Part shown: piece by piece, positions 4,120 to 28,300 of the stretch
Layout: each line of letters opens with the position of its first letter
Numbering within the stretch: position 1 is the first letter of the stretch
Assembly: GCA_905178155.1 (NCBI GenBank)
Contig: CAJINV010000005.1
Coordinates: forward strand, 8,306,515-8,370,514
Origin: Amoebophrya sp. A120
Taxonomy: Eukaryota > Protista > Dinoflagellata
Reading direction: 5' to 3'
DNA length: 64,000 nt
The notes under the pieces: generated by a model
What the model was told of the DNA's origin: nothing
What the model saw: only the letters and a program-made list of their open reading frames with translations
Databases searched by the model: none
Position numbers and translations under genes: made by a program

Positions 4120-5518
4120 TAGAAGGAAATCCAATTTTTATGTACTCTGCAGTTTAAGTTTAACACCTGATGACTTACATCAAATCTTATCAAACTAGTC
4201 CAAGAAGAAATTTTATACAAAATGCGTTATTTCAGCCCAGAAGAAGTTTTAGTTTCACCTGTTGATGTTGTGTTGCGCAATTTTTATCGGAAGAAAGAAA
4301 ATGGAAAATTGATGACCTTAGCAGAAGATGACATTGAAAAGGTCTCCGCGGCGTCCCGAGCTGCAAATGAAAAAAGTTTTTAGAAAGTTTGACTTACTTG
4401 TTCCTCTTGCATCGAATGTGAATTGAAACAAAGAAAAATACTGGTAATACCCAACAAAAAAGGATGAAAATGCACCCCTCTTGTACTTACTTACACCCCT
4501 TTGGTTTAAATTTCGACTTGCGCCAGGATTGATTCGCATGCCAGGTTCTTGATGATGTTATGTGTACAACAAAAATTATGTAAAGGCAATAGCTGTTGTG
4601 TTTATCACAGCCACTACAGGAGAAAATACAAGAAACGGCAAGAACTAAGCTATCTACCACTTCCACCAGCCTTCAATATTTTTTCTGTCACTTGCTGTTC
4701 GCCATCCGCAAGTAGTGAAGGTGGCCCGTAAAATGTTGATGAAAGCGATTTTCGATGACTATAATTGGGGTTTCTTGTGGATGCTCAGGGGGATGAGGTT
4801 GTAGTCATGGTGCAATCGTCTCTACTCTTCTTCACGCTCGAAGACTCATCTCTGTGGGGGTGCAGAGATTACTTATATCTATTCCAACAATTATATCGCG
4901 TTCGCGTAGGTGTACTTGCGTATCTTGTTCCGTTGTAGTTTTTCTCAGGGAAGAAAGATCAAGACATCGTCGTCGCAATAGTCGTCCTCGGTTGATGTAT
5001 ACTTATTCACGACGCAAGCAAGTAGTTTCTCTGCCGCGTTGATTGGTTTATTTATTTCTTGTTGCAGCTCGGGGTAGTCGTAGTCCTTGATAATATGGGG
5101 CGTGGTCGTCTTTGTGGTAGTGGTTGTGGTTCGTATCTGTGGTTCGTATCATCTGTGGGAAGTGGAATCCAAGCACACGGTTGATGACTTCCGTTGCAGG
5201 GGATCGGATTGACACTCATCGATTAGTGGCACGAACACTCAGGACAAGGACCACAACGAATCGATTTCGGTGGTTTCAAAGCAGGGATTCATTTGTAGTC
5301 GAAACCTTCTAGTTAGTTGCACGACCTGTTTAAGTACGTACTTATCATTCTGTCGCAATTTTTCATCTTTTTCTGCTCGCGAGTAGAGTCAGTCGCTTCG
5401 AAATGCTGAACTACACTATACGAGCTGTTTTTTAGAATGAAGGCTAGCTCCGTGGAGTATTCATTGTTGTAAACGTACTAAAGAGAATTGTTCTTCTGTT
5501 TGATTGAAAATAAACCGA

Positions 5519-8500
5519 ATGATCATGAGGCCTCACGTTCCGGCTTCGGTGAGGATGTCCCGGAGGTGGAAAAAAAGGTGTCCAAGAACAGTAGTTTCTG
5601 CACATAAAAAGGTAAAAAATCCACCGGCAGAAGTTGTTGTGCAGCGGCCACTACTGAAGAACAAGAAGCGACCTGAACAAGAATTTCTTCCTTTCTTCCC
5701 GCGACGTTCTTGGTTCCGGTCCTGTCTGCAAATTTTTGTCATTTCTGGGTCGACGTTCTTCCTGCTCTTCCTTGGTCTTTTCTCGTGCGAAAAAGACCAC
5801 GACGACCACGAGCAGCACCATAAGTCCTCCTCCTGCTCGTCCCAGCAACATTGGCAGCATGACGAGCGCCAAACTATCAAAAGCAAAAGGCTTCGCACAG
5901 CACAGCAGCAGGAGCTTTGTCATCTTCGTGACCTCGCGGGAGCAGTACCACAGCCCGCGAATTTTCAACATCTACTTCATCCTGGCGCTTCATTTAGTAC
6001 AATTTTCGTGGCGGCAGCGGCACTAGAAGGAACCACGTCAGGCCGCACCAGAGCAGATGCAGAAAGCAACTCTGTTGTGGAGGATGAAGATCATTCTGCA
6101 GGAATCAAACTGCAACAACTACACGACCGCACGACAGCACGAGGAGGGGCGCAGGCGCAGCATCAGCTTGAAGATGTAGATGGTGAAAACAACATTACGT
6201 CGGCACTTCAGATGAGAAGTAGAACGGTACTAGCGCAAGAAGGACCACAAGCAGAAGTAGACTTGGCAGAAGCCCTGGAGGTGGAACAAGCTGCAGGCAG
6301 TCCAACAGATGACCACGACCTGGTAAACTTTTCGCCCGAGGACGAGAATAGTGAGCCTCAAGATCATCTTCAAAGCGGTGCGGGAGGAGAGCAAGAGCAT
6401 GATGGAAGAAGTTCTTACCTAGATGATGGTGCTGGTGATGTTCTTGTACCACGGCTATTACCACAAGAACAAATCGACCTTGGTCGTGGTGGTGGTGGAG
6501 AAAAAAAGACTACTACTAAAAGCTCTACTTCTACTTCCCCCACCACAGGAGCTGCCGCTTCTCACATCATCAACTCTCGTCCACCCGGAAGTAGCAGTTC
6601 ATTTGTGGACGAGTTCTTCCTGGAGAGCGACGGCGGGTCCTGGACAACATCTTTAGTACCCGCAAGAACTAGTACACCAGCATCTTCTTCACCTAGCCCG
6701 GGCGAGGGCGGTGGTCCTCGGGATGAAGGATGTAGTGAAGAAGACGAAGCAGGTGAAACTGGAACCACAGGTGGAACAACTACAAGGTGTAGCGGAATTG
6801 TTACGCTGAAAGCTTCAACATCTTCTGTGGTGCCAGACGTACAACATCGTGCCTCCGGACAGCAGAAGCTGTCAACAAGAACTTTCGCTTCTTCTACTGC
6901 AGCACCTTCTACAACAAAAACTTCTCTCGCAAGGACTACAACTCCCGAGTCTTTTCTCCAAAAATTTTTCCGGCAGCGTCGAGAAAGCGAAAAGCAGAAA
7001 ACAAGTCGGAAAATTGGAAAGATGGCCAGGGAAGAAGTAGAGCATCAAGTGCAAGAACGCGACGGGTATCAAATGAAAAAATGTCTGGGTCTGGAAAGTT
7101 GCAACTTGTGTTGCTGCCTTTGGAAGGTAAAAAAAATCTGTATTGCATGACCAGCAAGAGGAGCTCAGTTTGTGCTACGCGGAGTGGGCGTGTCTCATGC
7201 GGAATACGCATCAGATTCAGAAGGCCCTTATAAAAATCTATGATGCAGCTTGGTCATGCATTACAGGCATCATGGGTTGTGCAGAATATGCATGACAAAC
7301 CTGGCAGTCTTCCAGACCCAGACATTTCTGCACTTGATAACGGGTCGTACAGTTCCAATGGCGACGAGGACGAGGATGAGGACGGGCACTTTTTGGGTAG
7401 AAAAGATCCGAAGAAGGTCGCCCTCGAGAAACGTCGGAAGGAGGCGAAGCGTCTCGCGCTGGAGGATTTTAAGAAGAAACCGAAGCGGCGCGTGTACGTG
7501 GCCAGCTACAACGTTCTGTCGCTGCTGCAACACCGCAGCTCGGGGGGTCCGGACCTGCGTTCCATGAAATACCAGCTGCCAGACAAAAACAAATTTTTTC
7601 AAAAGTTTCTTAACATAGCGGAAAAAGACTTGCGAGCTGCAAAGTCAACGGAGCGGCCTGCTGCGATGAAGAAACAGAAGGATTACCTCCGCCTGGAGTT
7701 GGCCTGGAAGGAATTTGTTAACGGCCAATTGTGGACGCGGTACCCACTTACCTACTCGCAGCTGAGGGCCGTCGAGGGGTTATCCTGAGTAAAAACGTCC
7801 CCACCCCATAGTCAAGATGGGGACTTTGCAACACAAATCTAGGAGTTTTGGGAGTCACGCATGACAAGTTGCAGTCCGTAGTGTAGTGCAGGGTAGCAAG
7901 TGCAGCCGCATCACAGATCCATCTGCGTATCCTGTTCACAGCATCACAAATTCCAAAACACGACTGGAAATGTCTACCATGGCTATGCGCATCACAAGTG
8001 TCGTTGTCATTGCAAATCCGCATGCACAACCGCAAACGCAAGCGCCACAACTTTTAGCTGCGCAAGAACAACAGCCGCCGGCCCAGATGATGGTAGGAAT
8101 ACGGATGGGGAGGCCACTTAACGCACTAGTAGCTCTACTGCATGAAGTGAACGAACAACTAGACCAAGGAGCAGAAGATGGCCGAGAACGAGAGATAGAC
8201 GATGAGGAGGAGGCGCGAGGCAACGCTGCAATCCTACCGAACCCCAAGTACTACATCAGGACTAAAGACATCAAGAGGACGATGCGAAGGGCGTGGAACA
8301 GCATCAGAAAATGTAAAGAAGAACGAGAACGCAAACGGATCCCGGAGGAGGCAGCGACGGGGAGAAGCTGCTGCAAGGGCGCCGATACGAAAAAGGCAGA
8401 CGAGGGTATAATGAACGGAAGTAGAGGTATGGTTTAAATAAAGACTGCTGTTCTATTTCATAGTAAGAAATTAAATTGTTGATCACATTCACTGTTAAGG

Positions 8501-11500
8501 GCAGGAGGATAGAAGAGGAGAAGCGAAAATATAAGGAAAAGGGAAAAGAGGCGCGAGATACGAACGGGTCTGCAAGCTCCATTCTATGTACTTAGCTGCC
8601 GCGACATAGAATGGTACCCGTCAGGCTCGGGGAGCTACTCTCTATGAAATTGATGCAGGGCACAGACTTCGAATTCACTTTCCATAAAACAAGGGCTGGA
8701 CGGGACAGGTACTGACGTCGAAGCGCTCTGCGCCTGAGACGTCACACATAGCAACAGAGATCAAACGGGCGCCCTGATTCGATAACTACGCCGATGTTGC
8801 TATCTGGGACCAACATGCAGTCGCATCGCACACCCGGGAGAAATATAGTCAGATCATCTAACAAGAAAAGGGAAAGACACGCAACTAGGAACGGCGCGCT
8901 TTTGTGCATCTACTTCTCATCGAGTCCAGCAGAATGAGCCAAGGACACTGCCACCAAATCGACAACGGCCGCCCCGGGGTGGTAAGTGTCGACCAGACCG
9001 ACGGCAACATATTCTGCTGGGTGTGGGGAGTAGATTTCCAAAAGAGGAGGGAAGTATGTCTGAATATGCATGAAAAGCATGGAGATAGTGACCCTGAGTT
9101 ACCTTCATTTTTTCCGAGGGAAAAGTTTTGCATGCGAAGGTAAAGCAGGCTCGCGCTGCAAATCAGTGGGAGGAATGGATAAGTTATAGATTCAGGAAAA
9201 TTCTTGGCTATTTGTATGATTTGCATCTCTATGTATGTAGCAACCTTCACGTGGTGAAGCGTCCGCCAAATTGTATGAAAATTGTATGAGAGATTCCTGT
9301 TGCTATAATTTCTGGCATCATTCTAGCGGCAAGAATTATACCAATCTAAACCTCCGCCGAAATGCAGAGAGACATACTCGAGGCAGGGCGTCTACCTCTT
9401 TGCGTGTAAGGGCACCCGGCCCCTTTTCCTTTTCCTCTTTTTTTTGCATGCGGGTAGCCGAATAGAGGCTGAGCCGCATGCAATCCAAATCCGATTTGCT
9501 TGCTGCTGCTATGTATGCTTTGTATGTTTCCTGCCGCCTTGTAGTCGTTATTAAGCACCTCGTCTTTGCCGCTCTTCGTTTGTTTTGTCCAAGGAGCTAG
9601 ATCGCAAATTCGTGCGCTCCATCGCCTATGAAAAATTAGATCTTCCCTGTGCCCGGTGTTGTCCCATGTAGATTTAGGTCTCTACCCTTTTACAGTCTTT
9701 TGTCGTCTCCTCGCGCTTAGTCTTACTTGATCCACGACTTGTAGCGCTAGTCGTTCCGCGGACCCCGCGTCCTCGCAGGGGCTTTTCTTTTTTTTTCCGC
9801 CTAGCCAGCGGGTTGTTGCTTGGGGGGGTGTCAGCTTTGCGTGGCAACTTTATATGCGTGCTTTATTCCGGTTTTGCATGACAAAGATTTATTGGCTTTA
9901 CTACAGCACCCTGCAGACTATCTGCTTTGACTGCGTAGAGGCAACCGGTGTAGTCTTCCTAGCGCACTAGTTTCGCCCGCTGCTACCGGGTCAGTAGTTA
10001 GAAGAATTCAGGTTGCGCGGTCTCTAAATGGTCCGTGGGGGTGGCTTAAGTTTTGACTGGGTGACTTGTTAGCTCTAGAAAAAGCTCGCTTTCGTATTTC
10101 TAAGAACAGAAATTTTGCATGACAGATTCAGGCTCAGCTAAGCCGGTGTAGATAGTATCCCCCCGCACTGCTATGCCCCCAAACACATCTTTCCGGACGC
10201 TGCAAGATGGAGAGATGTGGCGTGTGCCGCTGCTACCGGCTCGACACGTAAAGGAAAACGAATCCGCGCGCTCGGCTTGGTAGCTACCCCCATGCCGTTC
10301 GGGTTTTAGCTGCCACTGGCGTCATTGATCGGCGTCGCCAATATCTCCATCCCGATGATTTCCATCTCTACGTTTGTGTATGGTGCATAGGAGCTTGCTC
10401 CTTTTTGTGCCGCGGTGTCGGAGGTTTTGCAGCATGCACGCACAAACAGCATTTATGGAAGCGGAGGGGGGGGCGCGGGACCCCCATCAAGTCGTCGCGG
10501 CGCGAAGCCGCAAATCCTTGGGCCACGTCTACCACCAGAAGTATTCCGCCCGGGGGCCGCTCAATCAATAGGCGGGCGCGTCCTATGCGGTCGGGTTTGA
10601 AAGGTACAGTCCGTGCGCCCGCAACTGCCGCAAGGCATCGAATCCGGGGGGTCAATATAAATTTTTTGTAGTGTTTTTTGATGCAATGTAGTGACGATGA
10701 TTCCGTAGCCTGGTTAGCCCGTCCAAACAGGGCAAAGAGCGCAGCGGCTTCCTGCGCAGCGGCTTCCTGCGCAGCGGCTTCCTGCGCAGCGTCGGTTCGT
10801 GCACGTGTGTCGCTCTTCGTTCGTTGCCTTCAGGAGCTTGATCGTAAATTCGTACGCTCCTTCTGCTTTGAAAAATTTCGATCTTCCCATCTGCCCCCAT
10901 CTTCCGATGTAGATTTAGGTCTCTACCCTTTTACTTCTTCTCTCGTGTAGTGTTCGTTGTTGTTTTACCTGACCCGCCTGCTTAGCGCTAGCCCGCGTAG
11001 CCCGCATCCTCGCAGGGGCAGCTGTTTTTTTTTCCGCCTTGCCAGCGGAGTTTGTCGCGGGGAAGAATGCAGTCTGGGTTCAACCGTCCCTCCCTCCCGG
11101 GGTTCAACCGTCCCGCCCCTCCTCATGTAAATAGTGAAAAACTTCTCTTGCGTTTTTAGTCTAGTCCTTTTTCCGTAGATCGTTTTTTATGTTCGACCTT
11201 ATGGCATCGGCGGCTGTCGCATTATGCGCCTGGTGTAGCTGTTCAAAGTCCCTCGGCATAAGGGTCATAGTCTCGTATACAAGGCGCGCGGCAGCTAAAT
11301 GCGCGCTTGGTCGTTCTAGAAAATTAGTACCAACTGACCCATTATCGGCCTATAGTATTCGTGGACCACCCCTTTGAGGAAGCGGGTGCGTTCGGTTGAC
11401 CACTTTCATAGGTTGGTCATGGGGAATTTATTCCCCACCTGTCATGCATGTTGGGTCGCCGAAGTCTCTGTTTTGCATGGCGTGCTCGAGTACCGGGGTG

Positions 11501-14500
11501 CTGGAAGACGAATTAGTTGCTAATAGATAGAATTGAAAAATTTTACTACTCTTCGTGCAGCGGCTTCTGCGCATAACTTTAGTCTCGACCTTTAGCCCCG
11601 CCCCCCCAAAAACATTACATATTTTACTACGTCTCCATCTACGTCCCATCGTAGACGTCTGCCGCGGCTTTCGGCATTAGACGTTAACTAAAACGAGTGC
11701 GTTGCGCGGGTTTAGGGTTCCCCCGGTTTGTATCTCCCGAAGGCATGCTTTGAAGGGTTTAGGGTTTCGAAAGAATTTATACCGCATGACGCGTGACGGG
11801 AGCACGCAATGTAAGCGCAGCGGGCGGGTACCGTTCTCGCCGTAACACAATTCCAGAAAGAAAGAAAAGAAGTGAGCCCCTCCCGCAGGCAAAAAAAAAA
11901 AAAAATCTGCATGACAACTCTGGGGTGGGGACGTTTTTACACAGGATAGGGGTGTGTCAAGAGCTACCCGGCATCGATGACGCCCTGGCGCGTGCCCGAC
12001 AGTGCCGGTCTATGCATTGCAAATATGTCTGGGTCCTCTGGAAGATTCTGAGACCTGTCATGCACGTTTTGCATGAGCCATGATGTCTGTGATGCATGCC
12101 CTAGCATCACAGATTTTTTCAGGGTTTCTTGATGCCTATTCCGCATGACAAAGGTCCTCTCCGCGTTGCAAAAATTCCATTTCCTTTGCTGCCTATGCAA
12201 TACAGATCTTTTTGGAATCCACACGCAGCATCACAAGTTACATCCACCTTCCAGGCCCAGACATTTTTGCACTTGATACGGTCGTCTTGCTTTCGATCAC
12301 GTCACGGCGCCGGGAGGAAAGTATCTTCAGCATCCGGCCATGTGCACCTGGGACGCCGGGCATTGGATCGCGAAATCGCAGTTGAGGTTCCCGTATGAAA
12401 TGCAAAAATGTCTGGGTCTGGAAACTTGTGATGCTAAAATGTGCATGATGACAACACTTCCGAATGCAGTCCGGCATGACAACTTCCCAAAACGCTTTCT
12501 CATAGGCAATCCGCATGAGAAACTCCGTTTTTGCATGACAAAAGAGGCTGCGACTTTTGTTCGTTATGCAATACAGATTTTCTAGGTATGGAAAGCTAGC
12601 ATTACAAGTCCCAACCTTCCAGACCCAGACATTTTTACAATCTATATCCCGTTGGCGCTGCTGGGTGTGCAGGGCTGGCCCGATGTGAAAACCAGCGTCT
12701 TGCCGCAGCAAGTTTCGTATGGATTGCAAATATGTCTTGGTTTGGAAGAATGCAGATGTTTGTCATGCTTGTCTCACATGACTCTTGAACCTGGAATGCG
12801 TGAGCAGGAAAAGACCCTCTTACCTGTCATGCAAAAATGTAGTTTGTCTTTGTCATGCGGAAAGCTAAACACATAGGAGCCCAGAAACTTGTCATGCGTG
12901 GCTGCCTATTGCAGTGTTCCCACAATTCACAAATTAGCATCACAAGTTTCCAGACCCAGACATATTTGCAATGCATATGTCAAGGGGACGTTGGTCCTCG
13001 GCAGGGGAGCAGGAGCAGAGTTTGATATCAAGGAAAAAAACGTTGTTAGTGTAAGTTTGTGATGCGCAACATTCAAGCTGATTGCGTCTGTCATGCTTGG
13101 CATGCGTCGTAGGGTTCATCAAAGGGCGTTTTCAGATAGTATCTGCGCATGACAGGTTTTTGCTGTCATGCGAGAGATATTTGCCATGCTGTTCCTCCAA
13201 AAAAGTTACACCTACAATGTTTTTTTCTTGGATATTTGAGTCCGGATGCTTACAAGTACGCCCTGCCCTTCGCTCATCCGTTTTACGAGACCCGAGCGCG
13301 GTATGGGAGTGTCAGGATCGAAATCGTCAAAGTTGAAATAATCTGTAATGCAAAAGAGCGATACCAGCTGGATAGCCCAGTTTGCAAGTGGCGCATGACA
13401 AATTTTGGCAGCATGGAAATCCAATTTGTCCTGCTGTTTGAGCAGAGAAGACTGCTTTGCTATTTTAGCAGCTCTATCTTACACCCCAAACTGGCTTATA
13501 ATCGGCCTCAGTTGCCTGCTCTGCAAGACAGGCCCACTGCGTCTAGCATTTTATGCATCACAAACTATTTCAACGTTGACCATTTCAATCCTGACGCTTC
13601 CATACGAGGGCCAGGACCTGGCTCCTTGACGGACTCATATCAACCGCAAATTATGATATCTGGGTCTAGAGGAAGAATGCAAGTAAAGTTTGTCATGCTT
13701 GTCTCACATGACTCTTGAATCTGTAATGCATGAGCAGGAAAGCAGCCTCTCACCTGTCATGCGAAAACGCAGTTTGTCATGCGGGAAGCGAAACACATAG
13801 GAGCTCAGAAACTTGTCATGCGCGGCTGCGTAACGAAGTGCGCCCACCATTCACAAACTAGCATCACAAGTTTCCAGACCCAGACATGTTTGCAGGTCAT
13901 AACCCAACGCCAAGGATCCGCAGCGCGAGTATGGATTGCAAATATCCCTGGATGTCTGGAAGGTTGCAACTTGTGATGCTGTCTCTGCATTCCAAAGAAA
14001 TGTGTATTGCATGACCAGCAAGAGAGGTCCTGTTTGTGCTACATGGAGAGGGCGTTTCGCATGCGGAATAGGTATCAGGAAACCCTCTAAAGATCTGTGA
14101 TGCTAGGTTATGCATTACGGGCGTCATGGGTCGTGTAAAATCTACATGACAAGTCTTCCATATTTTCAGAACCAGACATATTTGCATTTCATAGCGAAGA
14201 CGGCAACCGATTGGCAAAGTGGCAACGATTGGCAAAGTTTCAACCCGATCGGAACGCGCGGTGGCAAATTGGCAACGCGCACAGGTCGTGCGCCATCTTG
14301 CTGGACCTCGACACGTTGATGCGGGGCGGGGAATATCAAATGCAAATATGTCTGGGTCTGGAAGATTGCAAGGTTTATTGTCATCCACATTTTGCATGAC
14401 CCGTGATGTTTGTGATGTATGCCCCAGCATCACAAATTTTTTGCGGGCATCTTGACGCCTATCCCGCATGAGAAATCCCCCTATGTCGCGGAGCAAAAAC

Positions 14501-17500
14501 TGGACGCCTCTTGCTGCTCATGCAATACAGATTTTTTTCCCTTCCAAAAATAGCATCACAAGTTCTTGCATTCGTCCGGACCCAGTAGACATTTTTGCAA
14601 TACATAGGGAAATGTCGAACGAGGGGGAGAGGGAGTACAACCCCGACGAGGCGGACGAGGGCGAGGGCCGGCCCGGTATCACGAGGAAAAATCCCCCCTC
14701 CCCATATCAAAAGGAAGTTTCTGATGCTGGATTTGCGTATACAGATCAGGTTTGTCTTGCAGTAGAGGACAGCAGGCTCCTGCCAAGCCTGAGTAGAGAG
14801 CTTTTGGCCTAGGCGCTTAGCATGAGAAACGTCTATGCTGTAGGCCCAGTAGCATCACAAACCGCCTGCATAATGCGGTAGAGCCTGTGGAGTTGTCTTC
14901 TTGCAAGACAGACGTGATTTGTGGCCTCAAATCAGCAAGACAGCGCACCTGTTCGATATGGGGAGGGGGGATTTTTCCTCTCAATACCCGGCGTCGGCTC
15001 GCAGGAGCAGGGGCGGAAGAGAAACAAAAGCCGCGATAAATTTTACCTGGACGAGGAGATTCTGCGTTTTGACACGCACGCAGATTTAGGGTTTGACGGA
15101 GTGGACGAAGACGCGGCGCACAAGCAGCACTTTGTGGAGAAAAACCTCGTTTGCCTCACGGCGATCTACGTCCGGAGGCTGAAACTGGTGTTTGCCAGCG
15201 CAGAGCTTTATGGGCGGAACAGCAATTACGACTGGGAGCACGAGGTCGAGCATATCCTGCTTCCTCCCAAGTTCACGGACACGGAGGTGCGGAAACGAAT
15301 GGAGGCCGACGCGAAGAAGTACAAACTTCGCACGTTTCTGAACAAGGCCGAACCCCCAAACGCAGTCGACAAGGAAAAATGGATCCGAGAAAATGTGCCG
15401 CAGGACAATGCGCGGGACGCGATGCAAACGGTGTGTACGTACCTAGCCAGGATGCTGGAGAAGCGACTGGGAGGTGTAGAAGATACAACTAAGCGGATGG
15501 AAAATAAGAAGCGAGATGCCTCAAGTAATATGCGAGTTAGTGCGAGCAAGGCAGCAGCGAAAACTACGGCGGACGGAGGTCAACGCGAGGTTGTTGACCC
15601 TGGTATATCAAATGCAAAAATGTCTGGGTCTGGAAGACGACAAGTTTGTCATGCGCATTTTCCATGATCATCTACGATGTCTGTTATGCATGCCCTAGCA
15701 TCACAGATTTTTTGGGCGCTTATCGATGCGCATCCCGCATGACAAATGCCCTATCCGTGTAGCCAAATTTGGCTGCTCTTGCTGCTCGTGCAATACAGAT
15801 TTTTTTTTAGCATCCCAATGCAGCATCACAAGTTGCAACCTTCCAGACCCAGACGTATTTGCAGTCCAAATGGCGACGGGTGGTACAATTCGGAGGAGAT
15901 CGATGGAAACGCTGAAACGTTCCGAACGAGTGGTTATAACACGGACGGAGCGGGCGAGGAGGCCGGGGGGTTGTATGACCTGCCAGCACAAAGGGAGAAG
16001 AAGAAGACGAAGCGGGGCGGTGGGTCCTTTTCCGCATTCGTCGAAAAGAGGACTTGGAAACAGAAAAACACCATTTTCGGAAGCAGAAGAACCAGCAAGA
16101 AGCCGAGTGGTAAAGAGCAAGAGCGTATGCATCGCAAGTATGTCTGGGTCTGGAAACTTGTGATGCTACAGTGTGGATGATGGAAACACTTCCGAATGCA
16201 GCCAAGCATAAGAACACTCCAGAACGCTTTCTCATGCGCAGCCCGCATGAGAAACTGCGTTTTTGTATGACAGAATAGGCTGCGGCTTTTGTTGGTCATG
16301 CAACACGACAAATCCCACAGGAATGTAAGACCAGCATTACAAGTTCGAACTTCCCCCCAGACACAGACATATTCGCAGTGGATAGAGCGACGTGGCAAAA
16401 ATCGGCACCATGAGCACCACCGCAGAAAGAGCAGAAAGGGGAAAAGGACTATTGTAAGGAAAAATGCTCCCATCCCAGAACTTGGAAGCATTTGTATTGC
16501 AAACTCTTCCAATGGAAATATTTGCCCTCTTGCATGTATCAGCATCACAATCGTGAATAAAGCAACCTCTTGCATGTATTTTCAATCGTGAATAAAGCAA
16601 AAATTTGCATTGCAAAAGACCCCAGCAAGAGCACTGCTTGTCATGCAAGCGATGCTGTATACCTATACGACTAAAATCTGCATCAGAAAAATTCATAGTC
16701 CTTTCATTGGCAAAAAGTTTTCATTTGGAAACTTCGCATCACAAATTGTCGCAACTTGCGGGGTGGGGGCATTTTTCACTGCAATAAGGCCTGCCGGAAG
16801 TTCCTCCCGAGACCGGCGTGGCAGCAGAAGCCGACGAGAGGGGGATTCCCGTCGAGAGCGCGGGCGTACAAGCCGACCTTCTGAGCGGCGGAGAAAGCTG
16901 CGGCCCCCGCCGGATAAGATTGCGCTAGATGGCAAGTTATCAAATGCAAAAATGTCTGGGTCTGGAATGTTGCCGGCTTTGTCATGCATATTCTGCATGA
17001 CCCAGGATGTCTGTAATGCACGACCTAGCATCACAGATTTTTGGCGGGCTTCCTGATGCCTACTCCGCATGACAAATGCCCTCCCCGCGTAGCACAAACT
17101 AGCCTCCTTCTGCTGGTCATGCAATACAGATTTTTTTAGAATCCAAAGTTAGCATCACAAGTTCCAACCTTCCAGACCCAGACACTTTTACACTTGATAC
17201 AAGTACATGGTGGGGCCGCGATCTTTTGGACCACAGAATATGAAATGCAAAAGTGTCTGGGTCTGGAAGCTTGTAATGCTGGGCGGCGTCTCATGATGAG
17301 GCTACGAATGCTGGCTCAGCATGACAAGTTTCTGAGCTCCTAGGTGTTGCCTATTCTGCATGACAAACTGCGCGTCTGCATCACAGAAAAGCGTAGCTCT
17401 TGGGCAACGTGCATGACAGATTTAAACATCATGCCAGACAAGCATGACAAACATGAATTCTTCCAGACCCAGACATTTTTACACTTGATACAGAACAAAG

Positions 17501-20500
17501 TGCAACCAAACTACAGCACTGCCGCAAGATATGGAAGTGTCAGAACCGAAATTGACAAAATCGAAAAACTTGTGATGCACAAAATCGATGCCAGTTAGAC
17601 CCACAGTTTGTAGTCGGCGCATGACAAATTCTCTTCGTCCTGGAAGCGAATCTGTCATGCGGTTTAGGGCAAAAGAGCTGCCTTCTGTCATGCTAGTCAG
17701 CAGCCCAACACTTATTCCTTGCCAGGACTACAATCCGCCTTCCTTGCATCCTCTGCAACAGAGTCGCTTTTTGCGTAGCATTTTACGCATTACAGAGCAT
17801 TTCGATTTTGTCGATTTCGATCCTGACACTCCCATACATGAAACAGCCAGGCGGCGAATGCGAACCAAGACCAAGGGCGGCAGGCGACTGCACGGGAGCA
17901 GCAAGATGCGGGCGACGGCGCAGGCGGGGAAGAAAATACCGGGTGGCGCATATCCTGAGTAAAAGCGTGGTCTCCATACCAGAGTTGTCATGCAAATGCG
18001 CAATAACAGGAACATTTGTAATGCGCAGCTCCATGAGAAAAGGAATTTCTAATCGTGATTTGGAATTTGTAATGCTGTAAACAGGATGTTAAAATGGCTT
18101 TCTCATGCGGCTTCTCTTACCAATCAGCACTACACTGCAGAGGGAACAAAGAACTTGTCATGCACAGCTCCCAAAGCTACTTGGAGACTTGTGTTGCTAG
18201 ATTCCCAACTTGACTATGGGGTGTGGGCCCCGTTCTTTTTGCTTAGGATAGCGCAGACAAGTGAGCAGAATCATCCTCGCAGTAGACTCGCGCGCGGAAG
18301 ACCGGTATGAAATGCAAATATGTCTGGGTCTGGAAGATTCTAAACTTGTGATGCTGTGTCTGGATTCTAAAAAAATTTGTATTGCATGACCAGCAAGAGG
18401 ACTCCAGTTTGTGCCACGCGGATAGGACATTTCTCATGCGGTAAGGGCATCGCAAAGCCCTCGAAAAAGCTGTGATGCTAGAGCATGCATCACAGACATC
18501 ATAGGCCATTCAAAATATGCATGACAAACCAGGCAATCTTCCAGACCCGGACATTTTTGCATTTGATAACCGGTGGGCGATTGACCAGCTTTTCGCACCA
18601 AGTCGAGACAGCGTATTCGAAGTGGGATATTGTGAGGAAAAATCCCCCCTCCCCATACCAAAGCGGGACTCTTCTGAAAATTTGTGATGCTGATTTGAGG
18701 CCACAAATCGTCTCTGTATTGCACGGAGAGAAATCCAAGAACCCCGCCGCGTTCTGCAGGCAATTTGTAATGCTGTTTGGCCAACGGAGGATATGCCGGC
18801 CTTGCTAGGCGCCTACACCAAAACGTCCCTAGTCCGGCTTTGTATAATCTATCTGGAGTCCTCTGCTGCAAGACAAATTCGATTTGTGTACACAGATCCT
18901 GCATCACAGATTTCCAGTTCGATACGGGGAGGGGGGATTTTTCCTTCTGATATCGGAAAAGGTTCCGGGCTTTTTTTTTACCTGGACGCAGGGAACAACG
19001 AGCTGGGGAGCTGTTTATCAAATGCAAATATCCCTGGATGTCTGGAACATTCTAAACTTGTGATGCTGTCTTTCGATTCTAAAAAAGATTTGTATTGCAT
19101 GACCAGCAAGAGGACTCCAGTTTGTGCCACACGGAGAGGGCATTTCTGATGCGGTAGAGGTATGATCGCAAACCGCTCTAAAAATCTGTGATGCTACGGC
19201 ATGCATCACAGACATCATGGGTCATGGAAAATATGCATGACAAATCTAGTAGAAGTCTTCCAGGCCCAGACAGTTTTGCATTTGATACTGTTGCAAGGGC
19301 GACAATAAGGTCGCGAACGGGCAACGAGTATCCTGTGCAAAAGTACCGTACTCGTATTGCAATCATGCATTACATCAAATCTTTTTTTTTAAAGGTAAAT
19401 TCGCATTACAAATTTTACTTCTCATGCTGAGAATTTGTAATGCATTTATTCGAGTGCGATTACGATACTTTTGCAGTTCATAACAAGTCATGGACGCAGC
19501 TGAGTACGGAAACAGGTATGCAAGTTGGACAGGAGGAGGTCAAGGTAGGGGGTATCAATTGCAAAAATGTCTGGGTCTGGAAGATTGCCAGGTTTGTCAT
19601 GCATATTTTGAATGACCGATGATGTCTGTGATGCATGCCCTAGCGTCACAGATTTTCAGCGGACTTTGTGATGCCTCTACCGCATGAGAAGTGCCCTCTT
19701 CACGTAACACAAACTGGAGTCCTTTTGCTGGTCATGCAATGCAAATTTTTTTAGAATCCAGAGACAGCATTACAAGTTTAGAATCTTCCAGACCCAGACA
19801 TTTTTACATTTGGTAGGGGGCAACCAGAGCCCACTCCCCTCCAGCCGCGGCTTGGAACGACATATCCGATGTAAAAACGTCCCCACCCCATAGTCAAGAT
19901 GGGGTCTCGGCTAGACAAATCCACAAGCTTTGGCTGTTTTGCATGACAGATCTCAGCTCGTCGTGTAGTGCTGTTTGAGCTATTTCAGCAGCATCACATA
20001 TCTAGTACATCATGCTGATTGGAGCATGGCAAATTCCAAAACACGACTGGAAAACCCTTTTCATGGGGCTCCGCATGAGAAACATTTTCAGCATGCAGAC
20101 TTGCACGACAGCTCTGGGGTGGGAACGTTTTTACACAGGATACGACGGGACCGGACTTTATCTTCGATACGGGCCTACATGACCCCAGATTCTATTGCAA
20201 GGAAAAATCCCCCCTCCCCATATCGAAAACGGAATTTCTGATGTTGTATTTGAGTATACAAATCGCCTTGGATTGCTAGAAGGCCAAGTGCCGCAGTTGT
20301 GCCGTCGTTTGCAGGCAACTTGTCATGCTGTTACCCACGTCCCAGCTGCCTCCTATCATGCTGAAGATGCAAGGCTTTCCCACGACGGCCAGTACTACAG
20401 TCCGCGTCTTTTGCCTTGTAGCATGGCAAAGCACCCCACAAATCTGCGTCACAGATTCCAAGAGACTAGTGATAGCGTTACTCCATTGCCGCCTTCGCGA

Positions 20501-21207
20501 TATTTTTTTAGCGGACCCCGCACGAGAACCCTGATGCGTTTCCCGCTTAGTACTGAGCCTGCTTGACTAACGTAGCAAACACATAGACACCCTTCGCTTC
20601 GGCACACCTCACCTGCCTAGTCGCCCCTAGGTAGGTGCAGGAATTTTCTGTGTGGGCTTTTTGTGCTGAATTATTCCAACAGGGGCTGCGTTTTTTTTTT
20701 CTGCCTTGCCAGCAGAGTATGTTTGTATGGGGGGGAATTGACGGAAGTGGCGCGAGACCTTGGTGACGGAGCAGACGACAAGAGCGGAAATGGTACAAAG
20801 CAAAAAAAAAGATGGTGTACACGCGCACTGCTTAACTGTGTGAAAGGTGTCGGCCCTGTGTAACCTGCTGCGGCAGGCAGGTGAATTCGTAGAACTGCAT
20901 CACATGTTAAGTAACGCCCACCGGCCTCCTAGATTAGTGATGAATTTATATGCGTTTTCAGTGTGGGGCCCAATGAAAAAAAAAAAAAAAAAAATCTGCG
21001 TCGAAGATTTCCGGTTTGATATGGGGAGGGGGGATTTTTCCTTGTGATCGATTCGGGGGCGTCACAGCAGAGCAGGGTGCGGCACAGCGAACCCAATTGG
21101 TGCCCGAGATCGAGAATGCGAATTTCGCTCCTCGGGAGTTGCAATCTTATTTTTCTGACCACAAACCCATTATGAAGCCGGTGTATGTGATAGATGACAC
21201 TGAGTAG
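5519..21207 (+). CDS. Gene 2, large protein with N-terminal hydrophobic segment, 25 TIR introns; function unknown
   Basis: First exon 5519-7066 contains LQIFVISGSTFFLLFLGLFSC. Elements at 7067-7339, 7781-11948, 12011-12278, 12394-12646, 12718-12977, 13026-13234, 13302-13604, 13638-13901, 13930-14193, 14334-14606, 14677-14986, 15606-15870, 16126-16384, 16450-16786, 16938-17199, 17239-17490, 17530-17836, 17951-18250, 18306-18568, 18628-18952, 19016-19287, 19329-19482, 19553-19815, 19863-20142, 20193-21049. The spliced frame is open to ..KPVYVIDDTE* (21207). RVYVASYNVLS weakly resembles the first motif of endonuclease/exonuclease/phosphatase domains. Confidence 0.85.
8025..11902 (+). mobile_element. 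Poly(A)-tailed retro-insert nested in family-B introner 7781-11948
   Basis: Host element breaks after AAATCCGCATG (8014-8024) and resumes after an A-tract at AAATCTGCATG (11903-11913). Host TSD GGGGT closes at 11949-11953. The insert starts in an open frame (to 8437); no reverse transcriptase motif recognised. Confidence 0.85.
10739..10791. repeat. 15-bp tandem repeat (GCGCAGCGGCTTCCT) x3.5
   Basis: Directly visible inside the nested insert. Confidence 0.9.
13026..13234. mobile_element. Introner family F (3 copies, about 207 bp), representative copy
   Basis: TIR TATCNANGAAAAAAACGTTGTTAGTGTAA; TSD TTTGA. Others at 29963 and 30264 (reverse orientation). Confidence 0.9.
13302..13604. mobile_element. 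Introner family G (3 copies, about 300-320 bp), representative copy
   Basis: TIR TATGGRAGTGTCAGGATCGAAATCGNCAAA. Others at 17530 and 41553. Confidence 0.9.
14677..14986. mobile_element. Introner family D (11 copies, about 310-330 bp), representative copy
   Basis: TIR TATNNNNAGGAAAAATCCCCCCTCCCCATATC / GATATGGGGAGGGGGGATTTTTCCNNNNNATA; TSD CCCGG. Other starts: 18628, 20193, 27290, 27775, 29154, 30562, 35260, 35952, 43118 (degenerate), 56745. Confidence 0.95.
16450..16786. mobile_element. Introner family H (3 copies, about 305-340 bp), representative copy
   Basis: TIR TATTRYAANGAAAAATGCYCCCACCCC. Others at 26930 and 29516. Confidence 0.88.
19329..19482. mobile_element. Introner family C (8 copies, about 145-190 bp), representative copy
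   Basis: TIR TATNNNNTGCAAAAGTATCGTACT / AGTRCGATACTTTTGCANNNNATA. Other starts: 5, 22709, 23581, 26570, 32873, 59485, 60673. Confidence 0.93.
20451..20991 (+). mobile_element. Poly(A)-tailed retro-insert nested in family-D introner 20193-21049
   Basis: Duplication AAATCTGCGTC at 20440-20450 and 20992-21002, with an A-tract immediately before the second copy. Confidence 0.85.
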
Positions 21208-22337
21208 CGGATCATGCGGAAGGTGGAGTACATATAAGATACTTACGAATATGAATAAGATAAAAACGACTCCTGGTCGTGAAAATAAACCTTTCGGTGT
21301 CCTGTTGTATACGGTGACGTTCATGATAGCAGGGATGATGACGACTGACATAAGCGGCGAATGGGTACTACTGTACTGCAACCCGGAGCATGATGTAGCT
21401 CCCTTCTGGAATAAACACAGAACTATAGCAGAGGACAGCCGTCAACTTCTCGTTCTCTGTCGTGTGTAGTTTCTGATGTACTGGTTCTGTTCGACGAGTG
21501 AACAAGTATTTTGAATACTTTCAATACAGTTGTTGAAGATCCGATTGCTCTTGCAAAAAGTGGAGCGATTTGTGCAAGAATATAGCGTCACACGACGAGG
21601 AAGCCGTTGTGCCAGAGCTGCTGGAGCGCGATTTTCAGAGGAGAGAGTTACCTATCAAGACACAGTTGATTTTTGATTAGAATAAGTACAGTTATCAACT
21701 GGGAGCGGAGCGCTGCAGGATTGATGAGGAGCGCAGAAGTTGATGAACCTACGACTTCGCCGTGGTCTGATAGCAAGAAATCTGTAATTACTCTGACCAC
21801 AGGACCTACTATTTCATTGAAGCGCATTTTTATCGGAACGAAAGAGCCGAAGCCTGTCCGTACTTCCATTTCCATATTCTATTTTCGCAGCGCGCAAGAA
21901 CATCACTTTCGATTAGAAATTCGCCCGGTACTAAAAAACGCAAAACCAAAGCAGAGTATTTTAGCAGATATACATGTCCCCGCTAGCTGGTACACACCAC
22001 GCGTTCATCGTGCACGTCAGTACTTTCTCAGCTGCGCTCTTCGGCGTAGTAGAGCTCATCAACCGGTGGACTTGGTGTCAATATCAGAATATGCAGCCCG
22101 GGAGGACCTCCACGAGCAGCAGCTTCTGCACCAGTTGAGGTTGTTGGTTTCATCCCCGCGGGGGCTCTCGCACGAGGAAGTGGTCAACGTCGTTTTCGTA
22201 CCTAGAAGACTACTAGTAGTACCTCACGAGGACCAGCACAACTGTGGGGAGGTGTAGTAATATTCCACAAGAACGGCTGGCCTTTCGCGCTCGCCTCTGA
22301 AAATTAACGAGAACAGCAGCAGCTTGTTATTGTTTCC

Positions 22338-25300
22338 ATGGGCGCCGCCGCAAGCTCCGCCCTGAAGGGGCCCGGAAAGGGAGGGAATAAAGACGGGGAT
22401 ACCAAATGCAAATATAATGTCTGGGTTTGGAAACTTGTGATGCAAGCCAGGGAATACTGGGCGCACTGTCATGCGTGGGCAAGCATGACAAGTTTTTGAG
22501 CTGCTATGTGTAGCGTATTCCGCATGGCAGACTGCGCTTCGCATCACAGACAAGACGATCTTATTACGCCTTCGCATGACCGGGTTCCGAGTCATGTCAG
22601 ACTAGCATGACAAATCTGGCAATCTTCCACACCCAGACATATTCGCATTTGATAGGGGAGAAAAACAAGCAACCATCGCAGCACCAGCAGTGGCGAAAGC
22701 CTAAAGATTATGCAATGCAAAATTTCGTACCAGTATAAATTACATATACAAATAATTAGCCCAGCATTACAAATTTGAATTTGTAATGCTGATTTACCTT
22801 GAGAAAGAGATTTGTAATGCATAAATGCAATTACTACGAGTACGATACTTTTGCACTGGATAAAGATTTGAAGGAAATCAAAAAGCAGAACGAGCAGCGC
22901 AGGAAAGAGCAAGAGGAGCTGGAGAAGCGACGAAAAGAGGCGGAAGAGAAGCTGAGAAAACAGAAGGGTAGCAAATGCAAATATGTTTGCGTCTGGAAAC
23001 TTGTGATGCTAAAACGTGGATGATGGAAACAGTTCCGCACGCATCCCAGCATGACAACTTTCTGGAACGCTTTCTCATAGGCATGAGAAAGTGCGTTTTT
23101 GTAGTATGTACAAAAGAGGCCCCGACTTCTTTTGTTGGTTATGCAATACAGACTTCCTAGGCATGGAAAGCTAGCATTACAAGTTCCAACCTTCCAGACC
23201 CAGACATTTTTGCATTTGATAAAGGAGCTGCTCGAACAGGAGCGAAAACGGTTGGAAACGTATCCTGAATAAAAACTTCCCCACCCCATAGTCAAAATGG
23301 GAAAGCAAATCTGCTAGACCAATCTACAACCTTAGGGTGTTGCGCATGACAAGTTTGGTCGCGTAGTGTAGTCCTTTTTAGCTCGTTCAGAAGCATCACA
23401 AAACTGCCCCACCGTGCTGATTGGAGCATTACAAATCCCAAAACAGCACGACGAGGAGTCGCTTCCCATCGAGCTCCGCATGAGAAACGTTTTGAGCATG
23501 CGTTTTTGCATGACAGCTTTGGGTTGGGGACGTTTTTACATGGGAGAAAACGGCCGAAGAGATCGACGGAGCAGAAGTCGTATGAACTGCAAAAGTATCG
23601 TACTCGTATTGCAATCATGCATTACAAATCTTTTTCTTGAGGTAAATCCGCATTACAAACCTTATTTCTCATGCTGAGGAAACTTGTAATGCATTCATAC
23701 GAGTACGTTACTTTTGCAATGCATAAGTCGGAGACTACGTCGCGGGGCAAACCACAGCGGGAAACACCGCGAGCAGCCCGGAATTGAGTCAAAACAACGA
23801 CATATCCTATGTAAAAACATCCCCACCCCAGAGTTGTCATGCAGATCTGCAATGACAAGAACATTTCTGATGCGCATCCCGATGATGGGCATTTCCAGTC
23901 GTGATTTGGAACTTGTAATGCTGTAAACGGGATAAGCGGATGGATTTGTAATGCGGCTCTCCACACTAACCTGCACTACAGTACGAACTGAAATTTGTCA
24001 TGCGTGACCACCAAAACTTCTAGGTTTGTGTTGCAAAGTCCCCATCTTGACTCTGTGGTGGGGACGTTTTTACTCAGGATACGACAACTACGGAGCAGGA
24101 GCAGCGGGGCAGAATGGCGAGCAGAACTACAATTTCAACCCTGATATCGAATGCAAATATGTCTGGTTCTGGAAGTAGGTTGCAACTTGTAATGCTGTGC
24201 TTGGATTCTAAAACAGTTATGTATTGCCTGACCAGCAAAAGGAGTGCCGTTCTTCCTACGCGGAGGGGGCATTTATTGTCATGCGCAATAGGCATGATCA
24301 GGGAGCCCTCTAATAATCTGTGATGCTAAGCCGTGTAGTTGTACAGGCATTCTGGGCCATGCACATATGCATGACAAAGAACCTGGCAATCTTCCAGACC
24401 CAGACACGTTTGCTGTTGATGCCTGATTACGTCTTCTTCGACGATCAAACGGGCAAATTATCACAAGAAAAAACTGTTTCACTGTAAACTTGTAATGCAG
24501 AAAATGCATCTGAGAAGTGTTTGTCTTGCTAGTCATGCAAGACAGTGGATTTTTAGCTGTGTTTTCCCTTAGGGATCTCGCATGGCAAATTTTCTCTGTG
24601 AAGATGTAGAGCAAACTTGTGATGCAGAACTTGCAAAATCCTTACAGTGAAACACTTTTTTCGTACGATACAAATACATCGCCTACGACTACGACGAGCA
24701 GGGTAATATCATCAACATGCAGGACGTCTTATCAAATGCAAATATGTCTGGGTCTGGAAGGTCGCCAGACTTGTCATGCAGGTTTTCCATGACGCATGAG
24801 GGCTGTGGCTGTCATATATGAGCTAGCATGACAGATTCTGCGCGACCTCTATCATGCCTCGCCTGCATGAGAAACTGCCTCTCAACTTGGTCAGAAGTGA
24901 GCAGCTTTTGGCAATCACGCAACACAGATTTTCGCACTATCCAGAATTAGCATGACAAGTTCCAGTGTTCCAGACCCAGACATATTTGCAATGCATACGT
25001 CTCGGTGCACTACGAAACGGCGGCCGAGAAAGCGCTGAAGAAAGCGGAACAGGTATCCCCAGTAAAAACAACATCCCCATCCCAGAGTTATGATGCAGAT
25101 TTGCAGTGACAGGAAGACTTGTAACTAATGCGCATCTCCACGAGAGGCATTCGCATTTCCAGTCGTGTTTTGAAATTTGTAATGCGGTAAACAGGATAAG
25201 ATAAGGAGATGGCTTTGTGATGCGAGTTTTCGTACTTGCTACAGTGCACTACAATACACAGAAGATTTTGTCATGCGCGAATTCCAAGGCATGTGGATTT

Positions 25301-28300
25301 GTGTTGCGAGATCCCCATCTCGACTCTGGGTTGGGGACGGTTTTTCACAGGATAGCAGGTCGGGATTTTCGACATTATGGAACACGAAGAGGTTATGCCA
25401 GGAAAAAAGCGTCACAGTTACACATTGTGTTGGAGAACGCGCAAGACAGACAACCTCTCTCATGCTGGAAAGGCATGCGAGCCTCGTTTATTCATACGTG
25501 TTTTCCCTTAGCATCTCTGCATTGCAAGTTTTCTCTGCAATGCAGAGCAAGTTTGTGTTGCTAAAGTTGCAACAAATGTGTAACTGTAACACTTTTTCCC
25601 TGTGATAGAGGTGGTCCCCTCGGAGTACGTGAAGAACCAGGAACGCATATCCTATATAAAGACATCCCCGCCCCAGAGTTGTCATGCAGATTTGCAAGCA
25701 CAAGAGCATTTGTAATGCGCATCCCCATGAGAGGCCTTTTCCACTGTGTTTTGGAACTTGTAATGATGTAAACAGGTTGAGGAGACGGATTTGCTATGCG
25801 GCTTCCCTTGCCAAGCTGCACAACAGTACAGCCTGCAACTTGTCATGCGTGACTCCCAAAAGTTCAAGGTGTGTGTTGCAGAACCCCCTTCTTGACTCTG
25901 GGGTGGGGATGTTTTTGCTTAGGATAACGCAAGGAAATCGAGGAGCGGCTGAAACAAGACGAGATGAAGAGGTTATCAAATGTAAAAATGTCTGGGTCTG
26001 GAAACTTGTGATGCTGAATTGCGCATGTTTGAAGCGCTTCCAATGGCAGCCAAGCATGACAAGTTTTTGAGAGGGCTGCTGATGCCTAGCACGCATTACA
26101 AATTGCGTTTTCGCATGACAAAGAAAGCCTCTGTTTTGCTGCTCATGCAACACAGATTTTCCAGGAATGCATGACACGCATTACAAGTTTCAACTTTCCA
26201 GACCCAGACATTTTTGCACTTGATAGAGGTCCAAGCAGAACGAAATCCTGCAATTGCGGCAAAGGGTATGATAGTGCACAACTGCCCCTCCCCCTCATTT
26301 GTATGGCATGAACAGCATCACAACCACCAACATTCATGGAGCCTGTGCATGACAAGTTCACGCGCCGAGTGTAGTACTGTTTCGGCTTGTTCCGGAATTT
26401 GTAATGCAAATAGTGCCATAAGGCACCAACTGGATATGTGGTTTTGCATTACAAATGAGGGGATGTTGTGCACCGTTATAAAGGGAAGTGAAAACGGGGT
26501 CGATTTTTGGGAATCCGAAAAGAAATTCGGACGTGCTGAACGCAAGTCAGCTGGGGAGCAGTCAAAAATTATGCGATGCAAAACAAGTATCCTACTCGTA
26601 TAAATGCATTACAAATTTCCTCAGCGTGAGAAAATCTGTAATGCGGATTTACCTTTAGAAAAAAATTTGTAATGCATGACTGCAATTACTACGAGTTGTG
26701 CGATACTTTTGCACAGGATAGAAATCCATTGGGACCAACAACAGCCTCCGGTCGAGCCAATTGTCGCTCAACAACACCCAGGATAAGCAGGTTTTACAGC
26801 TGCAGGACGAGTTGGTCTCCAAGCACGAGAAGCTGAAACTACCGGAAAACATGTCCTTAGAAAACACTCTGATTGACGCCGCGAACAAAATCTGGGAGCA
26901 AATTATCCGGGAAAACAAGTCCCGCCGAGTATTACAATGAACAATGCCCCCACCCCCGAACTTGGGAGAATTTGTATTGCAAACCTTTCCAAAAGAAACA
27001 TTCGCCCTCTTGCATCTATCAGCATCACAGATTTCCAATCGTGAATAGCAAAAACTTGTATTGCAAAAGATCCCAGCAAAAGCGGCGCTTGTCATGCAAG
27101 CGATGCGATTCACGCCTAGACCCTGTATCAGAAAGATTCATACTCCTTTCATGCATGACAAAAAGTTTTCTTTTGGAAAATTCGCATCACAAATTTTTGC
27201 AACTGTGGGAGTGGGGGCATTTTTAACTGTAATACCGAGCGGAGTTGAACGCGAGCGGCGGGTTAGGACCCCCGGGCAGCACGTTGACGTATCAAAAGAA
27301 AAAATTCCCCCTCCCCATATCGAAAGCGACATCTGTGACGCTGTATTTGAGTACACAAATCGACTTGTATTGCTAGAAGGCCAAGAGCCGCAGTTGTGGC
27401 CTCGTTTGCAGGCAATTTGTCGTGCTATGTCGCACTTCCAGCTGCCTCCTGTCGTGCTGAAGATGCAAGGCCTTCCCACGCCGCCCAGCACTACAGGCCG
27501 CATCTTTTGTTCCCTTCTAGCATGACACAGCTGATTTGTGACCACAAATCTGCATCACAGATTTCCGCTTTGATATGGGGAGGGGGGATTTTTCTTCTCG
27601 ATATGACGCAGCCGCAGAACAACACGACCAATGCGACGTCGCAGAGAACCAGCACGCGACCCTCGCAAAACAATAACAACTCTCCGGCCAAGGCAAATTT
27701 CGGCAACGACCTGAATAACCCGAACGACCCCACCATTCTGCTCACGCTGAAGAAACAGGTGGAAGAGGCGGCGCTATTGAGAGGAAAAAATCCCCCCTCC
27801 CCATATTGAAAAGGTATGTTTCCGAAAATTTGTGTTGCTGATTTGTGGCCACAATAAATCAGGTTTGTCGTGCAAGAAGACAAGTGCAAAGGCTTCCCTC
27901 CCATTCTGGAAGCGATTTGGCATGCTGTTTGGCCTAGAGGGCAGCCGTTTGCGATGCTAAGCAACTAGATCCAGGCGCACCTATCCAGGCGAAGGATCTG
28001 GCCGCAATGCCTTACAGCAAGACAGAGCGCATTTGCGTACGCAAATTCAGCACGAGAAACTTCGTTTTGATATGGGGAGGGGTGATTTTTCTCCTCGATA
28101 GGCGCACTCTCTGGAGGCGTACGAGAACGACCTGGAGACCTACGCGCAGCAGAAGTATGCGCTCATACACGAACTGGACCAGCTGGTCTTGAAGATCGAG
28201 CCCAACGCGATTTTGGGGTATAACGAGCAATTGGAAACCGCCTACGAATATCCAGTGCAAATATGTCTGCATCTGGAAACTTGTGATGCACAAAAGGAAT

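Follow-up and report, generated by a model that had tools for sequence, protein, structure and literature searches.

Evidence for a common splice register and transcript-oriented terminal bases in introner-derived introns of Amoebophrya sp. A120

Introduction

Amoebophrya has among the highest known shares of introns that are not of the GT-AG type, and how these are spliced has been left open because the direct repeats at their borders hide the junction. A 64,000-nt stretch of Amoebophrya sp. A120 (assembly GCA_905178155.1, contig CAJINV010000005.1, positions 8,306,515 to 8,370,514 of the forward strand; hereafter the window) raises this question in a concrete form. It is densely packed with short inverted-repeat elements that fall into repeat families, and we catalogued 94 of them with terminal inverted repeats (TIRs) of the form TAT...ATA, each flanked by a 5-bp target-site duplication (TSD). 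At which TSD base are such elements cut out of the RNA, and which bases define the cut? A sequence-only reading of the window had proposed that the junction lies after TSD base 4, so that the intron starts with N-TA, T and A occupy donor positions +2 and +3, and G at +1 and the AG acceptor are unconstrained; it further suggested a modified spliceosome guided by the TIR stem. We confronted this proposal with RNA contigs and with a larger set of oriented elements. Published work is cited from the portions of text and tables that we covered.

Results

RNA joints point to a cut after the fourth TSD base

We call k the number of TSD bases retained from the left copy. Joints were taken from contigs of runs X1-X4 (one sample) over one gene, between 12650 and 17945. 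These runs were taken as RNA, as the elements are skipped in them, whereas the DNA-type run X5 reads through. Contigs lose rare joints and carry no strand information. The raw-read RNA run X9 was uninformative, with only 10 matching reads, probably from another strain.

All 13 elements of this interval are joined in the RNA contigs, and each joint omits exactly the element plus 5 nt. Seven of the 13 joints are informative by virtue of mismatched TSD copies (allowed k values in Table 1). Registers k=0, 1, 2, 3, 4 and 5 are compatible with 7, 7, 8, 11, 13 and 10 of the 13 joints, respectively. Thus, only the register predicted beforehand, k=4, fits them all; if registers were uniform, all windows of allowed k would include 4 with a probability of 0.003. 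The junction 15604/15875 does not slide and permits k=4 alone. At the left TSDs of the elements at 12718 and 15606 and at the right TSD of that at 13930, run X5 carries the letters of the reference. In the next gene, three of three checkpoints out to 30885 on a 4331-nt contig agree with removal of the element plus 5 nt; this contig crosses copies whose ends are TAC, TAG, AGA and ATG, and at 26570 it requires k of at least 1. We regard the register as very likely fixed at k=4, which gives introns the form N-TA...ATA-NNNN, with one base before the TIR and four after it, that is, at fixed offsets of 1 nt (5') and 4 nt (3') from the terminal stem.

The three mismatched TSD pairs from which this register had been deduced are present as described (CAAGA/CATGA at 17530, GCGAA/GCAGA at 35676 and AAGGG/AAGGA at 22969), as are their coding consequences: an in-frame stop at 17530 with k≤2, the peptide ALRKL at 35676 with k≥3 and KELLEQ at 22969 with k≤4. 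They bracket the cut at base 3-4 but do not by themselves fix base 4, the peptide at 35676 being the same at k=3 and k=4. For the element at 17530, bases 1-3 of the right TSD copy, from 17837, are intronic in the RNA; at k=4, therefore, the last two intron bases are TG instead of AG. More generally, the confirmed introns at k=4 start with GT, AT, CT or TT and end with TC, TG, AG, CC, GA, CG or GC, and only one of the 13 can read GT..AG.

Three terminal bases resist change in transcript orientation

The 94 window elements were pooled with 280 elements from 151 loci of another assembly that carry the same repeat families, giving 374 oriented elements. Locus elements were detected without scoring their first three bases and were oriented by a codon model, which was correct in 93 of 93 leave-one-gene-out calls (all in + strand genes). 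From 365 locus calls, 30 duplicates, 54 unoriented elements and one misregistered by 2 (L112) were removed.

In the window, the complete set of end variants is the one already listed in the sequence-only reading: TAC (22400 and 61268) and TAG (22969, 38926 and 51080) at 5' ends, and AAA (514 and 15870), ATC (21049), AGA (23547), ATG (24421 and 32299) and GTA (19815) at 3' ends. All 94 copies start with TA, as had been noted. Over the 374 elements, this TA is broken once at the transcript-5' end and 17 times at its 3' mirror (p=1.4e-4). The contrast is 0 versus 6 in the window alone (p=0.03, for positions chosen post hoc) and 1 versus 11 in the 280 independent locus elements (p=0.006; 2 versus 12 if L112 is retained). 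The third base behaves in the opposite manner, with 15 variants at the 5' end and 3 at the 3' end (p=0.008; 5 versus 1 in the window and 10 versus 2 in the loci). Both asymmetries hold on either strand, in the subset found without a search pattern (n=176; TA broken 1 versus 8, third base 8 versus 0) and among copies with perfect TSDs (n=282; 1 versus 12 and 9 versus 3).

Base by base, variants number 0, 1 and 15 at the 5' end and 10, 7 and 3 at the 3' end, with 9.0 expected per position from background. Thus, the third 5' base is the freely varying one, the last two bases of the 3' ATA vary at the background rate, and the first A of that ATA, intron position -7, is A in 371 of 374 elements and G in 3, among them the window element at 19553-19815. 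The general decay of the 3' end that had been suggested does not hold, as the pattern is position-specific: variation at TIR positions 4-24 is symmetric (224 versus 232), and the suggestion left uninterpreted the conserved first A of the 3' ATA (3 variants versus 15 at its 5' mirror). Strand-biased mutation does not account for the asymmetry, since sense-strand A>G and T>C changes are balanced (78 versus 77). Transposition is blind to transcript direction, which suggests that the constraint acts on RNA. We conclude that transcript-oriented constraint acts on +2 T and +3 A and, less strongly, on -7 A.

Two further observations concern these ends. A single element of the 374, at 4549-4793 of locus L031, has TTT at its transcript-5' end. 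In addition, sense-strand C>T exceeds G>A at TIR positions 4-24 over all elements (58 versus 35, p=0.02); transcription-associated deamination or tolerance of G-U pairs would be expected to produce such an excess.

The first and last intron bases show no clear preference

The other part of the proposal, that G at +1 and the AG acceptor are largely free, also agrees with the larger set. G occupies +1 in 33% of introns versus 30% in flanks, AG occupies -2/-1 in 35 introns (9%) versus 27 expected, and 14 of 374 elements read GT..AG at k=4. TSD mismatches show no drift towards G at +1 (7 versus 8) or towards AG (6 versus 6). Covariation between +1 and -1 amounts to an avoidance of TA and an excess of TT, with G/G at 44 versus 44.1 expected from the margins, and neither GTATG-like nor branch-like ends are preferred by transcript side. 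The first exon base is a purine in 235 of 374 cases. Thus, of the canonical U2-type GT (or GC) donor and AG acceptor, only the +2 T is retained; +1 and -2/-1 are without clear preference, a small residual one being possible. Ab initio prediction of GT-AG introns, made for a donor and branch comparison, returned 54 candidates with imprecise borders, several plainly wrong, and was discarded.

The terminal stem and the adenosine at -7

The element at 17530 illustrates the potential for pairing between the ends, with a predicted fold of 17510-17856 at -125.3 kcal/mol (z=-7.2). Across the RNA-confirmed introns, 8-11 of 12 terminal pairs can form. Changes that keep a G-U pair number 136 versus 112 (p=0.14), a comparison confounded by the sense C>T bias. 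The changes at the third 5' base break the pair with -7, and pairing is therefore not what is kept at that position. The -7 A might serve as the branch point, an assignment that we make only tentatively.

Identity and anatomy of the elements

The window catalogue comes from a family-agnostic search followed by hand curation, for elements that start with TA and end near ATA; it excludes an edge element ending at 161, a truncated element at 45251 and a copy found later at 33262-33394. In the combined oriented set, TAT is present at ~96% of 5' ends, A occupies TIR positions 11, 12 and 13 in 330, 342 and 350 of 375 elements, and the median length is 262 nt. The 5-bp TSD is perfect in 282 of 374 elements, detection at the loci having needed at least three of five matching bases. 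Both polarities occur (23 versus 24 and 40 versus 23 in two tallies). With TIRs, a TSD of constant length and no transposase seen within them, the elements resemble miniature inverted-repeat transposable elements.

They match the published A120-type introner elements. These have an inverted repeat of TAT, seven variable bases and AAA, direct repeats of 3-5 nt (5 bp in the legend of Fig. S19) and lengths of ~240-260 nt (Farhat et al. 2021; PMC7789003). The window elements show the same TAT-seven bases-AAA pattern, have direct repeats at their borders and are spliced, mostly at non-GT-AG ends. An Rfam search of the window found neither small nuclear RNA (snRNA) nor any other family, and a search of a viral sequence collection gave no match. 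The elements are thus known; the register rule is likely new as far as our literature search reaches, since in the Amoebophrya introner text covered (figures lay outside its scope) we found no statement of one fixed register.

Several copies depart from the usual size or borders. The expanded elements at 33851-35205 (1355 nt, with a 92-nt tandem array) and 20193-21049 (857 nt) keep intact ends and TSDs, and intron length therefore seems free. The element at 7781-11948 spans 4168 nt, has TIR ends of the usual kind and is flanked by a perfect duplication of GGGGT; its excision joins the 1445-codon frame of its gene. It is probably a short element carrying a large nested insert, and four of its open reading frames have no Pfam match. 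The length of the contig, rather than a joint, suggests that it is spliced out. Four TIR copies (33262-33394, 38926, 36329 and 43118) have flanks that match at only 0-2 of 5 bases, and removal of the element plus 5 nt preserves the frame; if these copies are spliced, splicing does not depend on identical TSDs.

Table 1. Coordinates of the element at 17530, of the other introns informative for the register and of their host gene (window positions; k, number of TSD bases retained from the left copy)
Feature	Position	Strand	Details
Left TSD copy CAAGA	17525..17529	+	Bases 1-3 exonic by RNA; under the common register, base 4 belongs to the exon and base 5 opens the intron
Exon joint	17527>17840		Slide 2, k=3-5; runs X1-X3; k≤2 yields in-frame TGA
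307-nt TIR element TAT...ATA, non-autonomous introner type	17530..17836	+	Long terminal stem predicted
Right TSD copy CATGA	17837..17841	+	Bases 1-3 intronic by RNA
Intron AT..TG, 312 nt	17529..17840	+	Ends assigned from the register; in RNA the joint can slide by one base in either direction
Constrained TA, intron +2/+3	17530..17531	+	5' broken 1 of 374 versus 17 at 3' mirror
First A of 3' ATA, candidate branch nucleotide (inferred)	17834	+	7 nt before acceptor
Intron AT..GC, uniquely fixed ends (element at 15606)	15605..15874	+	TSD TGGTA/TGGCG; k=4 only; 3' TIR end AAA
Exon joint	15604>15875		Slide 0; runs X1-X3; X5 covers 14959-15629 without other letters
Intron CT..GC (element at 16450)	16449..16790	+	TSD AGGAC/AGGCC; k≥4 (k=4-6); joint 16448>16791, runs X1-X4
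Intron GT..TC at k=4 (element at 12718)	12717..12981	+	TSD TTTCG/TGTCA; k=2-4; joint 12714>12980, runs X1-X4
Intron GT..GA at k=4 (element at 13930)	13929..14197	+	TSD GCGAG/GCGAA; k≤4 (k=0-4); joint 13924>14194, runs X1-X2
Intron GT..AG at k=4 (element at 13302)	13301..13608	+	TSD CGCGG/CGAGG; k=3-5; joint 13299>13608, runs X1, X2 and X4
Intron AT..CC at k=4 (element at 13638)	13637..13905	+	TSD ACTCA/ACCCA; k=3-5; joint 13635>13905, runs X1, X2 and X4
Host gene, 1445-codon open frame, unknown family	5504..21204	+	25 elements and one TSD copy each removed

Host genes

Removal of each element with one TSD copy yields open frames of 1445 codons (25 elements), 807 codons (28 elements) and 739 codons (9 elements), all on the + strand, which WW and RING exons confirm. 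A 203-aa exon of the 1445-codon gene had no Pfam match and no homologue among longer proteins. Some 37 TIR introns lie in the gene at 22308-36655, which also has a WW-like exon and a J-domain-like end, taken as such from its HPDKN motif; two further introns, predicted near 31730-31928 and 33076-33204, are likely of the ordinary GT-AG type. The gene at 54590-57133 ends in a C3HC4 RING finger (PF13920, E=1.4e-6), which is split by a TIR intron. Finally, 37969-40132 and 50049-53758 are a duplicated gene pair with a common element site (39255/53281) and private insertions, useful for dating element gain; the 50049-53758 copy has a weak KilA-N match below the Pfam cut-off.

Discussion

Does the register hold beyond the gene that revealed it, or does it vary within the TSD, as a published figure legend has it, the tested gene happening to fit k=4 and the mismatches perhaps reflecting RNA editing or assembly errors? 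Several facts weigh against a fixed register. The RNA comes from contigs of one gene and one sample; seven joints are informative, and contigs hide minor forms. A single joint is uniquely fixed, a bound of k≥4 being set by two joints and one of k≤4 by three. On the loci, a codon-likelihood test, which is a weak test, favours the left copy at TSD positions 1-4 (39 versus 18) and, contrary to k=4, also at position 5 (7 versus 3). Annotated A120 families, moreover, contain mixed splice dinucleotides (PMC12130899, Dataset S2), but slidable junctions make annotated dinucleotides arbitrary. Against variation stand the low probability of the joint pattern under a uniform register and the reference letters that X5 shows at the diagnostic TSDs; for editing to explain the mismatches, G>A and C>A conversions would be needed at three sites. 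A variable register also gives no reason for a base-specific constraint at +2/+3. We thus consider it very improbable.

If the register is fixed, the next question is what reads it. The spliceosome is probably the catalyst: U at +2, A at +3 and a branch A at short distance are positions that the U2-type spliceosome reads, and the constrained bases coincide with them. We judge it rather unlikely that a separate, non-spliceosomal machine measures 1 nt before and 4 nt after the TIR stem and ligates the exons, the three bases being a protein-recognition motif. Such a machine would fit the dispensability of G at +1 and AG, the lack of a U2-pairing signal around -7, the strong predicted stem, the failure to find U1 snRNA in A120 (PMC7789003) and the likewise stem-measured Euglena signature N3CDG...CH'G-N5-6|R (PMC12501133). 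However, the confirmed introns form only part of the terminal pairs and the excess of G-U-keeping changes is not significant, in addition to the coincidence of positions. More improbable, in our view, is a relaxed spliceosome with the same N|TA donor and its branch point elsewhere, the stem setting the acceptor and the signal at -7 being chance or a by-product. The constraint at -7 is indeed modest, the contrast of 15 versus 3 comes partly from an excess on the 5' side, and A>G variants occur there; yet the contrast recurs in the window, in the loci and in the pattern-free subset, and pairing is not the thing kept.

We lean, with some reserve, towards the reading that introner introns share the one register N-TA...ATA-NNNN and that a relaxed U2-type spliceosome removes them, taking TA as +2/+3 and setting the acceptor by distance. 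Other results count against it besides those on the register. One element starts with TTT. The deficit of variants at -7 taken alone is modest (3 versus 9.0 expected, p=0.02), a branch-like YTRAY is not favoured at the 3' end (57 versus 63), YTRAY at -7 is present in just 125 of 374 elements and -7 is G in three. The -7 A is predicted to pair with the +4 U (mean pair probability 0.75) and would need unwinding. Lastly, the stem-measured non-GT-AG introns of Euglena are believed to bypass the ordinary spliceosome (PMC12501133).

Insertion of an element makes a 5-bp duplication, and the RNA lacks the element plus 5 nt. From there, a U2-type spliceosome would read U+2 and A+3 from the 5' TA of the TIR, the -7 A may act as the branch nucleotide with the acceptor falling a fixed 7 nt downstream, and the TIR stem may bring the intron ends together, perhaps replacing U1. 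In the second splicing step, G+1 and AG check each other, and their joint loss fits this mutual check. As the cut lies inside both TSD copies, the exon is restored exactly whichever way round an element inserts, and this would account for its spread to tens of thousands of coding sites. A more speculative extension treats the symmetric TAT...ATA terminus as a portable splice signal that is complete in both orientations. It would provide donor +2/+3 at the 5' end and the branch A at the 3' end to a U1-less spliceosome that has lost the G+1/AG check and counts its way to the acceptor, and an insertion at any point of an exon would then be excised without leaving a trace. A120 retains U1-70K, U1A, U1C and Prp8 as well as U2, U4, U5 and U6, and U1 snRNA was not found (PMC7789003). 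In Table S4 of the same study, every one of the nine predominant A120 motifs carries T at the second position, and the nine A25 motifs all begin with TT; this pattern is only a lead, as the text covered does not state how slidable joints were placed there. For strain A25, the published TT-NN motifs together with a TTA repeat would likewise predict an N|TA donor, whereas strain AT5 has canonical introns.

The window elements share with A120 introner elements the inverted-repeat pattern, direct repeats, non-GT-AG ends and a high density in coding genes (PMC7789003). The text covered of that study describes the splice position relative to the hairpin as variable and the border as unknown, whereas we find one register and three constrained bases. 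Gozashti et al. (2025; PMC12130899) describe the A120 families as mostly non-autonomous TIR DNA elements with splice sites co-opted from the TSD, as here; their automated calls give mixed dinucleotides, TSDs of 2-5 and differing mechanisms, with no single register in the 11 of 58 A120 rows covered. The nonconventional introns of Euglena (Nomura et al. 2025; PMC12501133) are likewise mostly non-GT-AG, with junctions slidable through direct repeats and a stem at a fixed offset, and their code was also derived from non-slidable cases. In contrast, their motif and offsets differ (N3CDG...CH'G-N5-6|R versus N-TAT...ATA-N4), and they are thought to rely on other factors and to be released as full-length circles, whereas the fixed bases here coincide with spliceosomal positions. 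The non-canonical introns of Fritillaria borealis are also derived from TIRs and TSDs and use a modified U2-type spliceosome, with preferred AG-AC and AG-AT ends, a retained U1 snRNA and a duplicated U2AF (PMC11282704, 10.1101/2025.08.15.670264, PMC13326754); the end dinucleotides of the window introns are instead mostly host-derived and free except at +2. Finally, Yarrowia, Trichomonas and Giardia anchor a branch motif 2-4 nt before AG, a comparably short distance between branch and acceptor, but keep a strong ACTAAC and AG (PMC2483917), whereas the candidate branch here is one weakly constrained A.

A single register would reduce the apparent chaos of end dinucleotides to one rule. This rule singles out three bases and a candidate branch point, and tens of thousands of introns could be re-annotated with it. 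If excision is spliceosomal, the catalytic core can drop its contacts with G+1 and AG while keeping U+2, A+3 and the branch A, and these introns would show how a transposon makes itself harmless at any insertion site.
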